The notes under the pieces are model-generated. The model had not been told where the DNA came from and searched no databases. It saw only the letters and a list, made by a program, of their open reading frames with translations. 64,000 bases of DNA from Dictyostelium discoideum. Its lineage: Eukaryota. The stretch spans positions 480,001-544,000 of the forward strand of contig CM000153.2 in NCBI GenBank assembly GCA_000004695.1, read 5' to 3'. A program made the translations under genes and the position numbers. Shown here piece after piece: positions 38,010 to 44,733 of the stretch; the stretch's first letter is position 1, and every line of letters begins with the position of its first letter.

Positions 38010-41000
38010 TTAATTTAGTTTTAATTTATTATTATTATTATTAATATTAATATTATTATTATTATTATTATTATTATTATTATTATTATTATTATTATTA
38101 TTATTATTATTATTATTATTATTATTATTATTATTATTATTATTATTATTTTTTGATGAACAAGCTACATCATTGTTATTACTATTACCATCACTATTAT
38201 TAATTCTTTTATTATTATTATTATTTGATGAACAAGCTACATCATTGTTTTTATTATTACCATCATCACTATTATTATTGCTTTTATTATTATTATTTGA
38301 TGAACAAGCTACATCATCGTTATTATTATTATTTTTTGAATTAAGATTTTTTTTATTTCTATTCATAAGTTTCAATTGTTGGTCGGCCATTATATCATTT
38401 TTATTACCATTATTAACATTATTATTATTATTATTATTATTATTATTATTATTATTATTATTATTATTATTATTATTATTATTATTATTATTATTATTAT
38501 TATTTGATGAACAAGCTACATCATTGTTATTATTATTATTTTTTAATTCAAGATTTTTTTTATTTCTATTTATAAGTCTCAATTGTTGATCAGCCATTAT
38601 TTCATTGTCAAAAATATCCAAAAGAGATTTCCTATTATTCTCCAAAAAGTCTTTCCTTTCTAAATATTTGTCACCTTGGTCAGCATGTGCATTTGCATTT
38701 TCAAGTAAGGTTTCTCTTTTAATTTTCATAAAATAACGTTGTGGTACTTTAAAAAACCAAAGGACGAAACAAACAAAGCCTATAAAAAAAAGGAATCCTA
38801 GAACTGGGATAATAGTAGCCTTTTCAACTAATACAGCATTAATTTCTGATTTACCATTATCCATATTTTCATTTGTTGAAATATTTTCTAATATTAACTT
38901 AAACATAGAGCTATCAACTTTTTGATTAACTATGACTTTAATTTCAGATGTTGAGTTTATCCTTGGTAAAAAGAAACTTGATAAGGTATCATTATCGATC
39001 ATGCATGATATTTCTTTTTGAATCACCGATGATATTGTGCATCTTGTTTCATCATCAATTAAGAGTATTGTTTCGCTTGTGAAAAAATTGAAACCAAATA
39101 TTGAAACTGCCCAGTGGTCCCTTTGATAGTTATTGATTGCACTAATGTTGGTTATTGTTGGTCCAATGAATGTGATATTAAAAGGAATCGTTTGATTCAA
39201 TGATTTTGCTGTACATAGTTTATCATGAGGGCCTTTGAACCAATCACTGGTTTTGACATCACATGAAAAAGAGGAATAGTTTAAATATTTACAACCAAAA
39301 TTATGTCCATCACAATCAAGAGAAACATGGTGTTCAGAATGAAAATTTTCACCAGATATAAATGCTGTACCACCATCATGATTGAAAGGTGCAGATGTTG
39401 TATTCTTAATGGTAGGTTGAACGGTGAATGTAAATGGATCAGAAAAAATACCACAACAGCTAACCCTAATTGAAACACTAGTTAAAAATGGTTCCTTTTT
39501 AGTTGTTATTTCATTGGAGTTTATACTTATTGGAGTCATTATTTGATCTGAAATTGTTATAGTAGTTTTGTCATAAAAGCCTTGATTGTTAAATTCACCA
39601 GTACAAATAATTAATTCATTCAATACTGAGCATGATTTAATTATAGGTTCTTTATAATTATATGTTGACATGAGTGATTTACCACCATATTTAATCTTGT
39701 AATCTTTTGTGCCACAGCCCACACCAATATAAAATAAATAATCTAAATCATTTGAAAAATTTTGATTAATTTTTCCTATTGATTTAATTTCTTCATTTGA
39801 GTCTGAGTAAAATGATAACACTGGGTTTTCTAAATTATTTCCAGCACTTGTATTATATAATTTAACAATGCAATAAGATCCATTTACAAGTGGTTGAGTA
39901 ACAAACTTTGCCATGAATGATAATCCAATAAATATACTATTTGATTTGCTTTCGTATGATTTTATCGACAAATTAACATAATTCAATGTTTTTGGTATGG
40001 TGAATGACATGATTGTTTCTTGGTCATTAATTTTAACATTATTAAAATTAGAAGGAACTCCATCATTATAAATAGTAAAAGAGTCTTCTTTACCAAAACA
40101 AAGTCAAAAATTCATTAGAAATACTGTATGATGAAATGTATGGTCTGTCATAGTTGAAATATAGATTGTTAATGTTGGAGATACCATCAACATTCAATGT
40201 TACTAATGAGTTGCTTTCTAAATTAGCATTGTCAATTAAATTACAAGTTATTTTTTTTGGAGATAGAGTTAAAATTGAGCATTTGGATTTTCCTATTTTT
40301 ACCTCTGCCTTGACCTGAGATGAGTTTGAGGTTAATCTCTCTCCAATGATTGTAATTATAGCATTTTTATTTCTTGGAATACTATTTATATAGTTTAATA
40401 CTGGAGGATATATTAATTTCTTTTTGTTTGATGGTACTTTACACACTAATAATTGGATTTCAAAAGATGAACAATAAACATCTGAATAATAGTTGTAAAA
40501 TTCAATCAATTCATGATCATTTGAAATTATTAAACTGTTATTAATTGTTGTGTTCTCTACTAAAATTTCAATTGGAAATGGTTCAATACAGAAATTGGTT
40601 CCAATTAATACCACCTTTGTTCCTTGTATTTCAACTCTTTCGATATATGGATTCTGATAGGATGTATTGTAAGAAAATGAAAAAAAATTCATTTTAAAAT
40701 TGCCACACCCTACTGGGGTCATCATTGAAAAATCAGAACTATTTTTTGTTTTTTGAAATAGTTCTATTTCAATTTTACAATAATCCGATTTCACAAGTGG
40801 TGTGAGATTCAATAAAAATAAAAGATATGTGATATTTGTGTTGAATATACCACCTCTTGTAGATGGTTTTATATCTGGTTCAAAAATAGGTGGAAAACCT
40901 ATAGTATAAAATTGAGAAAAAGCTGAGCTCTCATTTAATCCAATATTTAAAGTTTCATATAAATTATATTTTAAATTGAAATCTGAGGCTAAGTTACAAA

Positions 41001-41263
41001 TTCTCTCATCACCATCCACATTACAATCAAAATTATACTCCTGAATAATTTTTTGATATTTAAAACTATATTTTGAAACGTATTCATCCTTTGAATCATA
41101 AAAAAAAGTAATATTATCCTTATTTATAATAACTTTATAAAATATTAGCAAAATTATCATTTTATTTTAAATATATGTAATTATTTCATTAATACATACA
41201 ACTAGTTTTTGAATAAACTATGGACACCAAATAAAATGTAATTAAAAAAACCAATCTTTTCAT
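38010..41263 (-). pseudogene. TgrB-like IPT/TIG membrane protein (pair 2) with a +1 frameshift: exon 1 41200..41263, exon 2 38010..41132; it may be a pseudogene or a homopolymer sequencing error
   Basis: The signal peptide is MKRLVFLITFYLVSIVYSKTS, followed by a phase-1 intron 41133..41199 (GTATGT donor). The gene is a paralog of 2981-6413 with roughly 45-50% identity. The reading frame breaks at an A4 run at 40095-40098 (sense TTTTGG where the paralog reads TTT GGT). After removing one base the frame continues ...LTLFGKEDSFTIYNDGVPSNFNNVKINDQETIMSFTIPKT and aligns with the paralog. The transmembrane segment is IIPVLGFLFFIGFVCFVLWFF, and the tail has DVACSS/poly-N repeats. Confidence 0.6.
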
Positions 41264-42107: not shown

Positions 42108-44733
42108 ATGAAAATTATACTATTATTTGTTATTTTTTTTCTAATTTCCAAGATCTTCTCTCAAAATTTAGTCTATCCAATTGGTATGTTTTTATGTTTT
42201 TTATAATTTTTTTTTTTTTTTTTTTTTCCCAATCCTTATTCTTTTTTTATAATTAGGATATGAAACTCATATGGACTCCCTTGTAGTTAAATATAAAGGA
42301 TCTGATATCTATTATACAAATATTTCATTTATTTGGAATCATAAAAGTCGTTATGATATGAGTTTTAATTGTGTTTTAAATGATACAATTAGAATTTGTA
42401 CTTTACCAGTGAAAGAATCTGATCGAGAACAAATGTATTCAGAGGAATTACTTGCATGTACTGCAAGAAATGGTATATTTGTTATGTGTGGTTTTGATGT
42501 ACATTTAGGTTTTTTCCCAAGTCCATTATTAATTTCACCTTTTAAACCAAAGACTAGAGGTGGAAATACAACATTAAGTGGTTATTATTTAGAATTAAAA
42601 GAAAGAGTATTTGTTATATTTGAAAATAATTATGAACAAGATCAATATTATGGATCTAATAATTATTATAGAGTAGTGGGTTATTTTGAAACAAACACAC
42701 CTGATAGAATAAATTTGACATTGAGAGTCTATCCAGGTTGTGGAAATAGAACAATTATTTGGGAAAATGGTGAAACATATAATTTTACATATCAAGATCC
42801 AAATATTGAAAAAATTGATATTAACCAATCAATACTTAATATAACTGGTACAAATTTCTATAATCAATCAGTATTTGTTGCCGTTAAAATTGATAATAAT
42901 ATTATTGATCCAAATGATATTATTTCAGTTGATTTCGAAAATATTAAATTAAAATTTAATTATTCAGATCCATTCTCATCAAAATTAAATGTTCAAGTCG
43001 GTTGTTGTGATTATTGGTCAAATAAATTTCAAATTACATATCCACCAATTCCATCAAGTGTAAATAGTATTCCAAAATTAAAAGGTGGTTTATTAATAAT
43101 CAATGGTAATAGATTAACTTCATCACCATCTTCAAATAATAATAATATATCAGTTACAGTTGGTGATTCAATTTGTTCAATTTTTTCATCATCTTCAAAT
43201 GAAATAAAATGTAATTTACAACCATTATCAAACTCAACATTAAATAATTCATCACCAATCACTGTATCAATTAATGGTGTTGAAAATACAAATAAACTAT
43301 TACTATATTATGATATTCCACACATTAAAACATATTCTCAAGTCAATAATGAAATTCATATAATTGGTAGTTGTTTTGGTAATATTAATTCAACTCACAT
43401 TCAAATCAATGGTAAACAAGCTCAAAATCAAATAAAATCAATTAATAATGATGAAACAGTTTTAATATTAAAAGTACAAAATCAAATTTATAATTTTAAT
43501 ATTTCAATCGAATCAAATTCAATCAATGTAGATGTAAAATTATATGCAATAATTAATGAAATTCCATCGGTTGGTAATAAATTTATTAATTTTACATTAT
43601 TATATGTAAATTCAAGTAATATTAATTCAATAGCAACAATTAAAATATTAAATGAACAATTAAATCAAACAATCCAATCAACTTTAACAACTTTTATTGA
43701 AAGTGTTGTATTATGTTCATTTTTAATTGAAAATCTTTGTGGTATTGTTAATTATGAAATTGAAATTGGTCATCAAAGATTTCAATCATCATTTTCATAT
43801 GAATCACCATTGATTAATAAATGTAATTTAAATTCAAATGAAATTGTTACTTGTATTGGTAAAGGTTTTGTAAATAGTAATGAAACAATTATTATTATTT
43901 CAAATCAATCAATAACATTTAATAATGAAAGTAATAATAATAATGATAAATCAATATCATTTCAAATGAATGAAGAGTATATTCTTGGTGAATTGTATTT
44001 AGATGTATGTGGTTTATTATCAAATAAAGTAAAAATTGATACAATACCAATTTTTAAAAATGTATCGATTCCAAACTTATTCGATACCAATGGTGGAGAA
44101 ATCATTATTTTTGGTAAATATTTAAATAATAATACAAATATTACAATTGAATGTAATAATGAAGTAATAGAAAAAGAATGTAAATCATATAATAGTACAT
44201 CATTAGAATGCAACATTGAATTTAATGGTCCAAATGATAAAACTTGTAAATTATTATTTAATAATATTGATAATAATAATAATAATAATAATATAGTATC
44301 AACATTTAATATTATCTATAAATCACCATCAATTAATCAAACTAGTATAATTAATTTAAAACAAGGAGGTATTTTAACAATTATTGGTAATGATTTCTAT
44401 TATCCAATTGATAAAGTTACAATAATTGGTAATAATGGTAATTGTAGTGGTTGTGATATTTTAAATTGTAATGAAGCAAAGTATATTAATGATACAATGA
44501 TAACATGTTTTATTCAAGCAACGAATAATACATTTAGTAATATTAAAAATGGTGAAATGATATTTATCAATGTTACAACCAATGGTAAAAGTGGTATATC
44601 AAAAGTATTCAAATATTTAACTCAATCTGATGATTCTCATCAATACTCTGACGCAAGAAATATCTTTCAAAATCTATTATTATCAATTTTAATCATATTA
44701 ATCATTTCATTATTATTCATTTCAAATATTTAA
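42108..44733 (+). CDS. TgrC-like IPT/TIG-domain cell-surface protein (pair 2): exons 42108..42183, 42257..44733 (about 850 aa)
   Basis: The signal peptide is MKIILLFVIFFLISKIFSQNLVYPIG, followed by a phase-1 intron 42184..42256 (GTATGT donor, AATTAG acceptor). The protein is roughly 75-80% identical to the 7136-9776 product and shares the same C-terminal hydrophobic end LLLSILIILIISLLFISNI. Confidence 0.75.

Follow-up and report, generated by a model that had tools for sequence, protein, structure and literature searches.

The window analysed here is a stretch of 64,000 nucleotides of the Dictyostelium discoideum AX4 genome (assembly GCA_000004695.1, contig CM000153.2, positions 480,001 to 544,000 of the forward strand; position 1 is its first letter), and it carries two pairs of divergently transcribed genes of the Tiger (tgr) family, termed pair 1 (2981-9776) and pair 2 (38010-44733). 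We consider it probable that pair 2, the subject of this report, is an annotated tgr-family locus that consists of tgrI2 and a truncated head-to-head partner, with a mosaic history of birth-and-death evolution and with binding in trans as the likeliest ancestral function of its products. In each pair, the reverse-strand gene is termed B-like and the forward-strand gene C-like; together with their homologues in other isolates they are referred to as B-type and I-type genes, respectively.

The original prediction of a second divergent Tiger-family pair, paralogous to pair 1, holds: the gene order and orientation of pair 1 are repeated in pair 2, and a signal-peptide exon followed by a phase-1 intron is common to all four genes. 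When the pair-1 proteins were searched against the window (tblastn), the C-like copies were 78.6% identical over 808 amino acids (42283-44673), and the B-like copies were 52-53% identical over approximately 850 amino acids, in two frames (41001-40096 and 40100-38505); codon alignment gave protein identities of 79.7% for the C-like and 54.5-55.3% for the B-like copies. The asymmetry that had been proposed between the two genes was thereby borne out (protein identity 79-80% for C-like versus 52-55% for B-like). At the DNA level (blastn, low-complexity filter on), 3122-6514 matched 38025-41353 with 69.7% identity, and 7098-9812 matched 42067-44769 with 85.6% identity. Similarity confined to low-complexity sequence, which had been named in advance as the outcome to check for on the pair alignment, was ruled out, the filtered matches spanning both whole ectodomains.

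The window is strongly A+T-rich (the host genome is ~78% A+T), and the four candidate genes were spliced by eye. The resulting features of the two pairs are as follows.

41200-41263, reverse strand: pair-2 B-like exon 1, coding for the signal peptide MKRLVFLITFYLVSIVYSKTS and ending in phase 1 (read from the sequence).
41133-41199, reverse strand: pair-2 B-like intron of 67 nt, phase 1, GTATGT...AAAG.
40090-41132, reverse strand: pair-2 B-like exon 2, to the premature TAA (40092-40090).
40100-40101, reverse strand: junction of an 11-nt deletion, at which TATATGGCCAA is absent from the TIG-domain motif LT(I/L)YGQC(L/F)G (DNA alignment with the pair-1 gene).
38010-40103, reverse strand: frame-shifted remainder of the pair-2 B-like gene, comprising what remains of the ectodomain, the transmembrane segment and a cytoplasmic tail in which the DVACSS motif occurs four times.
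41264-42107, no strand: intergenic region of 844 bp, common to the divergent pair 2, presumed bidirectional promoter.
42108-42183, forward strand: tgrI2 (pair-2 C-like) exon 1, signal peptide, ending in phase 1.
42184-42256, forward strand: tgrI2 intron of 73 nt, phase 1.
42257-44733, forward strand: tgrI2 exon 2, Ig_TgrO1 and TIG ectodomain, hydrophobic anchor at the extreme C-terminus.
2981-6413, reverse strand: pair-1 B-like gene (comparator), exons 6413-6356 and 6291-2981, with a 64-nt intron.
7136-9776, forward strand: pair-1 C-like gene (comparator), exons 7136-7211 and 7285-9776, with a 73-nt intron.

The spliced products are identical to the AX4 RefSeq proteins XP_639150 (Q54R97; 1122 amino acids, from the intact pair-1 B-like gene), XP_639151 (Q54R96; 855 amino acids, pair-1 C-like) and XP_639162 (Q54R85; 850 amino acids, the full tgrI2 protein), and the spliced 368-amino-acid product of the pair-2 B-like gene coincides exactly with UniParc entry UPI00004E2D19. 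Since these products match the database entries residue for residue, the exon/intron models can be regarded as validated. The introns of the two B-like genes match in position and phase.

The genes had been predicted to be of tgrB/tgrC type, and in this respect the prediction was not upheld. Q54R85 corresponds to DDB_G0283317, which is tgrI2 in a published proteome table (PMC12821622 supplement); a third AX4 paralogue, outside the window and 93.7% identical to the pair-1 C-like protein, is Tiger protein I3 in UniProt (TGRI3_DICDI); and the published tree separates TgrA/H/I/O, a rapidly duplicating clade of unknown functions, from TgrBEJ/CDK (PNAS 2025). Members of TgrA/H/I/O are present with up to 17 homologues per genome and are frequently inserted at new sites (PNAS 2025). 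Judged by their sequences, the C-like genes of both pairs are members of the tgrI subfamily; we infer that the pair-1 C-like gene is probably tgrI1, and that the B-like partners are probably of tgrH type. The neighbourhood of the tgrBC locus (wacA, chdB and DDB_G0280717, on chromosome 3) was not found around either pair. Both pairs are located on a chromosome of 5,450,249 bp, which we take to be chromosome 4, and their identifiers are of the series DDB_G02833xx versus DDB_G02805xx-02806xx for tgrC1/tgrB1.

The features of the Tiger family itself were found, i.e. a signal sequence, a TIG/immunoglobulin (Ig)-like E-set ectodomain and a single membrane anchor. By eye, a hydrophobic signal exon is evident in each of the four genes, of which a 19-residue hydropathy threshold flagged the pair-1 B-like gene and tgrI2 only. 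Both C-like proteins contain TIG domains and Ig_TgrO1 (E 1e-26 to 3e-31). No Pfam match was obtained for the full pair-1 B-like protein at E 0.01, but its alignment with the C-like proteins reaches E 1e-45 to 1e-55, and B-type and I-type proteins are ~28% identical. An HMMER scan with the pair-1 B-type ectodomain against 1.84 billion representatives yielded 40 proteins only; 20 of these matches were looked up, and the 16 that carry names are all dictyostelid. The family is thus dictyostelid-restricted among the named matches, and head-to-head pairs recur in the loci L001, L002, L004 and L006 of the other isolates examined below. At least three tgrI genes are present in AX4, and many more in other isolates. 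In a neighbour-joining tree of 34 I-type proteins, two subclades of the discoideum complex were obtained, one for each pair, with D. citrinum and D. firmibasis outside both. No relative of TgrI2 was found among solved structures (PDB). One word-index search yielded I-type proteins only. Another, with the frame-corrected pair-2 B-like protein, returned just six proteins, the 52%-identical pair-1 gene not among them, and is silent on intact orthologues; B-type orthologues were located as neighbours of I-type matches in other genomes.

For the history of the cassette, synonymous (dS) and nonsynonymous (dN) divergence were estimated by the Nei–Gojobori method (NG86), which is rough at dS above 0.6. 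The C-like pair has a dS of 0.195 [0.155-0.245], and in the B-like pair dS is 0.85 [0.66-1.11] upstream of the frameshift and 0.63 [0.50-0.81] downstream of it; correspondingly, codons for the same amino acid differ at 8.7% in the C-like versus 23-32% in the B-like pair (Fisher p = 1e-15). Silent divergence also varies along the AX4 C-like pair (1.1 in the signal exon, 0.38 in residues 26-200, and 0.06-0.19 further on, with ~0.06-0.11 at the 3' end), and ten I-type coding sequences of AX4 and the isolates FIR and FIW show the same trend, with a between-type dS of 0.37-0.55 over codons 1-200 and of 0.05-0.25 thereafter. Divided by the dS of syntenic AX4-FIR orthologues, paralogue dS amounts to ~3-5 in the B-like gene; the corresponding value is ~2-2.5 in the C-like 5' part and ~1-1.5 in the C-like 3' part. 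On the simplest interpretation of these differences in silent divergence, the cassette is made up of segments of unequal age. Silent divergence of ~0.4-0.85, as in the B-type gene and at the 5' part of the C-type gene, would go back to an old duplication of the entire divergent cassette, and later exchange or homogenisation may have rendered the 3' two-thirds of the C-type genes younger (dS ~0.06-0.19); copy gain and loss would then have proceeded separately in each strain, as in birth-and-death evolution.

The same gradient might be read, with less probability, as that of a cassette of one age, in which a local mutation hotspot or an ancient balanced polymorphism at the shared promoter and N-terminal exons has raised divergence, with no conversion of the C-type 3' part. 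This unlikely but substantial alternative draws on the strain comparison, in which AX4-FIR orthologue dS is 0.27 in part A versus 0.13 in part B of the B-like gene, and ~0.18-0.19 in columns 1-400 versus 0.06-0.08 beyond in tgrI2, and in which 13 silent differences were counted over 801 nt of the flanking Dcp2 exon; along the I-type genes, between-type nucleotide distance exceeds within-type distance by a roughly constant factor (1.9-2.5), and a hypermutable hotspot has been described at the tgrBC locus (PNAS 2025). However, after scaling by orthologue dS the B-like gene (3-5) is still older than the C-like 3' part (1-1.5), and a dS of 0.63 is seen in the membrane-proximal half of the B-like gene, although the C-like 3' half is equally far from the promoter.

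Two further candidates were rejected in the same alignments. Recent gene conversion between I1-type and I2-type genes was rejected on the grounds that every partition groups by type. Positive selection on residues 481-635 of the AX4 C-like pair (dN/dS 2.07) was also rejected, the window having been chosen post hoc and giving values of 0.2-1.3 across the ten I-type genes; the value of 2.07 is attributed to very low dS.

In AX4, the pair-2 B-like gene is disrupted. Its reading frame breaks at 40101/40100 and runs into the TAA stop at 40092-40090, and exons 1 and 2 encode a 368-amino-acid N-terminal fragment of the ectodomain, with a Pfam TIG domain at residues 271-342 and without the transmembrane segment. 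The receptor-ligand cassette of the original prediction is therefore not intact in pair 2 of AX4, with the B-like product cut to 368 amino acids and lacking a membrane anchor, and pair 2 cannot serve there as a matched membrane receptor-ligand cassette. The 11 nt are kept in pair 1 of AX4, in two copies of FIR and in loci L003 and L001 of FIY; the copy in FIW (L006) crosses the deletion site in one frame, and the syntenic copy of FIR (GCA_054859385.1), beside Dcp2, has an unbroken frame of 899 codons. Of the four genomes compared, only the AX4 lineage has the deletion. Past the break, the AX4 frame has no stop over 696 codons, a stretch that takes in the transmembrane helix and the tail, and the AX4 branch has 26 synonymous and 44 nonsynonymous changes (ratio about 1.66), with a nonsynonymous/synonymous ratio no higher than on the FIR or FIW branches. 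The deletion is hence recent, because the downstream frame is open and the AX4 branch has no excess of nonsynonymous changes.

The 368-amino-acid product might also be a functional secreted protein, analogous to TgrB2, rather than that of a dead pseudogene; TgrB2 has no transmembrane domain and is nevertheless expressed, strongly so in its truncated form, and is highly polymorphic (bioRxiv 2025), and the cut at the start of the TIG domain in pair 2 spares whole N-terminal domains, the signal peptide and the promoter side. We regard this as improbable, since the open and unrelaxed downstream frame fits a very recent accident better than a long-kept short isoform, every other sampled copy of the pair-2 B type reads through the site, and a search for expression data on the pair-2 B-like gene found none.

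The original prediction itself, i.e. that a tgrB/tgrC-type cassette was copied once by segmental duplication and diverged asymmetrically, with both pairs functional and the B-like gene evolving faster under selection, has become very improbable. It accords with the conserved gene order, orientation, and intron positions and phases, with a DNA similarity that covers both genes and stops near the gene ends, and with a dN that is higher in the B-like pair (0.29-0.35) than in the C-like pair (0.12). However, the silent sites are unequal too (dS 0.195 versus 0.63-0.85), a three- to four-fold difference that is not predicted by selection at the protein level alone; the comparison of dN/dS that had been proposed as a check gave a ratio of 0.41-0.46 for the B-like pair, which does not exceed the 0.61 of the C-like pair; AX4 has a truncated pair-2 B-like gene; and the genes are a tgrI gene and its partner type rather than tgrB and tgrC. 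The silent-site asymmetry and the frameshift have largely refuted a single duplication of this kind. Least likely is an error of sequencing or assembly in the reference, with a pair-2 B-like gene that is intact in AX4, as might be imagined from a single lesion in ~3.2 kb with a wholly open frame downstream: a loss of 11 nt in non-homopolymer sequence is atypical of Sanger or assembly error, the truncated 368-amino-acid model has its own UniParc entry, and no full-length product was found in the searches among AX4 or AX4-like (ACTFIT) proteins.

In the isolate FIR, the Dcp2 locus contains an intact B-type gene and an I-type gene, followed by a partial re-duplication (L002:13348-22008) that comprises fragments of Dcp2 and of a B-type gene, together with one truncated and one full I-type gene; as the re-duplication includes a Dcp2 fragment, the cassette was copied in place with part of its housekeeping neighbour. 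The pair-1 locus of FIR (L004) keeps the order kinase, B-type, I-type, kinase, and its B-type orthologue (L004:6126-9193) has a 2-bp deletion followed by an in-frame TAA, an indel call that needs confirmation in this long-read assembly. AX4 and FIR thus apparently show reciprocal loss of the partner gene, and each strain may keep one working receptor-type gene. In FIW (GCA_054859355.1), an intact pair-2-type B gene is paired with an I-type gene at a different site. FIW also has two same-strand arrays of three I-type genes with ~4-5 kb spacing (L005:1-12633 and L007:2135-12559), one of tgrI2 type and the other of pair-1 type, without B-type sequence between the I-type genes; because these arrays hold I-type genes alone, the ligand-type gene can amplify without its partner. 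In FIY (D. cf. discoideum), a kinase gene adjoins a pair-1-type cassette (L001).

The B-type proteins comprise a signal peptide, an ectodomain of ~780 amino acids, one transmembrane helix and a cytoplasmic tail of ~300 amino acids; in the pair-1 B-like protein, the transmembrane segment is at approximately residues 800-825. The pair-1 tail has nine DVACSS motifs, which form a 66-bp unit repeated 10 times, and the pair-2 tail has four such motifs. The motifs are embedded in poly-asparagine tracts (2900-3553 and 38010-38500, both reverse strand) and are also found in the FIR orthologue. Their conservation amid low complexity hints at a possible function, e.g. as a site of lipidation or phosphorylation. 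I-type proteins lack a tail and terminate in a hydrophobic segment at the very C-terminus; the I-type product is predicted to be secreted and heavily N-glycosylatable, with Ig-like and TIG repeats and a C-terminal hydrophobic anchor. TgrC1 has a large ectodomain and a short tail (PMC4404348), and TgrB1 has a cytoplasmic tail and is the receptor (PMC12142906 for the receptor role). Because the architecture of the two gene types matches that of TgrC1 as ligand and TgrB1 as receptor, binding in trans is the likeliest ancestral function; by this analogy, the ancestral cassette would have coded for a ligand together with a signalling receptor, and the two would have bound in trans between neighbouring cells during aggregation. 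In AX4, pair 2 would supply at most the ligand, with tgrI2 itself intact. The proteome table (PMC12821622) records TgrI2 protein solely at the mound stage, where both replicates gave a signal (2.0e6 and 2.8e6); TgrB1 and TgrC1 have values of ~3.3e7 and 4-8e6, respectively, at this stage.

Several points weigh against the view of pair 2 as a mosaic birth-and-death locus with an ancestral binding function. With respect to its history, all four partitions of the I-type alignment group by type and not by strain, and therefore any homogenisation predates the divergence of the isolates; within-type silent divergence is also higher at the 5' end, and a regional mutation rate may explain part of the gradient; and the higher dS values were obtained with NG86 in a genome of ~78% A+T, where they are to be read as rough above 0.6. 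With respect to its function, the TgrI2 signal in the proteome is low in abundance and confined to one stage, the resemblance to TgrB1/TgrC1 was judged from published descriptions, and the functions of TgrA/H/I/O are given as unknown (PNAS 2025).

A further-reaching idea is that the pairs of tgrH-type and tgrI genes constitute a second recognition or adhesion system, independent of tgrB1/tgrC1, with one working receptor-type gene per strain at one of several interchangeable loci; specificity would then reside in the fast-diverging N-termini of both partners, and the membrane-proximal part of the ligand would be homogenised by exchange between copies. We give this idea as a whole rather little credence; it is drawn from two strains, AX4, which keeps the pair-1 receptor-type gene, and FIR, which keeps the pair-2 type.

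The intergenic regions of the two pairs correspond in position, and to this extent the predicted reproduction of a bidirectional promoter stands; in detectable sequence it does not. The pair-1 region (6414-7135) comprises 722 bp, and its alignment with the 844-bp region of pair 2 showed no common sequence except A/T-rich low-complexity matches; conserved promoter motifs between both regions were rejected on the same grounds. The pair-2 region contains a direct repeat of ~62 nt in three copies (41759-42030), and the pair-1 region contains an (ATT)n microsatellite of ~69 units (6885-7087) directly upstream of the C-like start codon as well as a G+C-richer island at 6764-6830.

Pair 2 lies, as predicted, among housekeeping genes, with Dcp2 on one side and an AP-4-beta-like adaptin on the other.

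35744-37800, forward strand: Dcp2, upstream neighbour, an N-terminal open reading frame plus a NUDIX open reading frame (NUDIX E 7e-13).
45048-47810, forward strand: adaptin beta, downstream neighbour, most like AP-4 beta, with Adaptin_N and B2-adapt-app_C domains.

The identity of Dcp2 is backed by an orthologous fragment with PF05026:DCP2 in the FIR locus L002, and the best matches of the adaptin gene among solved structures are AP-4 beta-1 (E 7e-26) versus AP-1/AP-2 beta (1e-19). In the Dcp2 NUDIX exon (36604-37800 versus L002:5153-6397), the 13 of 801 non-repeat nucleotides that differ between AX4 and FIR are all silent differences; this divergence is large for one species and provides a baseline for strain comparisons. 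Pair 1 is bracketed by inverted protein-kinase genes (707-2423, forward strand; 11931-13712, reverse strand) that are 27% identical (E 1e-27); the position between two ankyrin-kinase paralogues that had been predicted was confirmed for the kinases, and the ankyrin repeats were below threshold.

Pair 2 belongs to the tgrI subfamily, in that its C-like gene is tgrI2 itself and shares Ig_TgrO1, TIG and the C-terminal anchor with other tgrI members. It resembles tgrB1/tgrC1 in divergent transcription from a common intergenic region, in large Ig/TIG ectodomains, in one partner with a cytoplasmic tail and the other with essentially none, in the appearance of TgrI2 at the mound stage, as for TgrB1/TgrC1, and in a divergence that is greatest toward the N-termini; it differs from tgrB1/tgrC1 (chromosome 3) in chromosome, locus and gene names, and in a receptor-type partner that is truncated in AX4. 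The locus is not the tgrB1/tgrC1 kin-recognition locus, and no allorecognition role is assigned to the tgrI2 locus here. Head-to-head tgr pairs have typically been duplicated into clusters with non-tgr genes between them, pseudogenes are common, and signs of interlocus gene conversion have been reported (bioRxiv 2025). Like tgrB2, tgrB_ps/tgrC_ps1 and tgrC2-C5, the pairs described here are nearby head-to-head duplicates with non-tgr genes between, and they share with the tgrBC-cluster duplicates a member that is cut before the transmembrane domain, strain-variable gene content and signs of interlocus exchange; unlike these, they are of a different subfamily and on a different chromosome, and a single 11-nt deletion causes the truncation. 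Pair 2 is thus an instance, in annotated genes, of a published and already known tgr pattern.

Kin recognition in this model of facultative multicellularity rests on the tgr family, and how such families generate and retain diversity is an active question. To this, the present analysis adds a subfamily assignment for the two pairs, a mapped deletion in the AX4 lineage, an apparent reciprocal loss in FIR, and evidence for differences in relative age between segments of the cassette. These points bear on any plan to probe TgrH/I function in AX4, in which TgrI2 is present without an intact adjacent partner.

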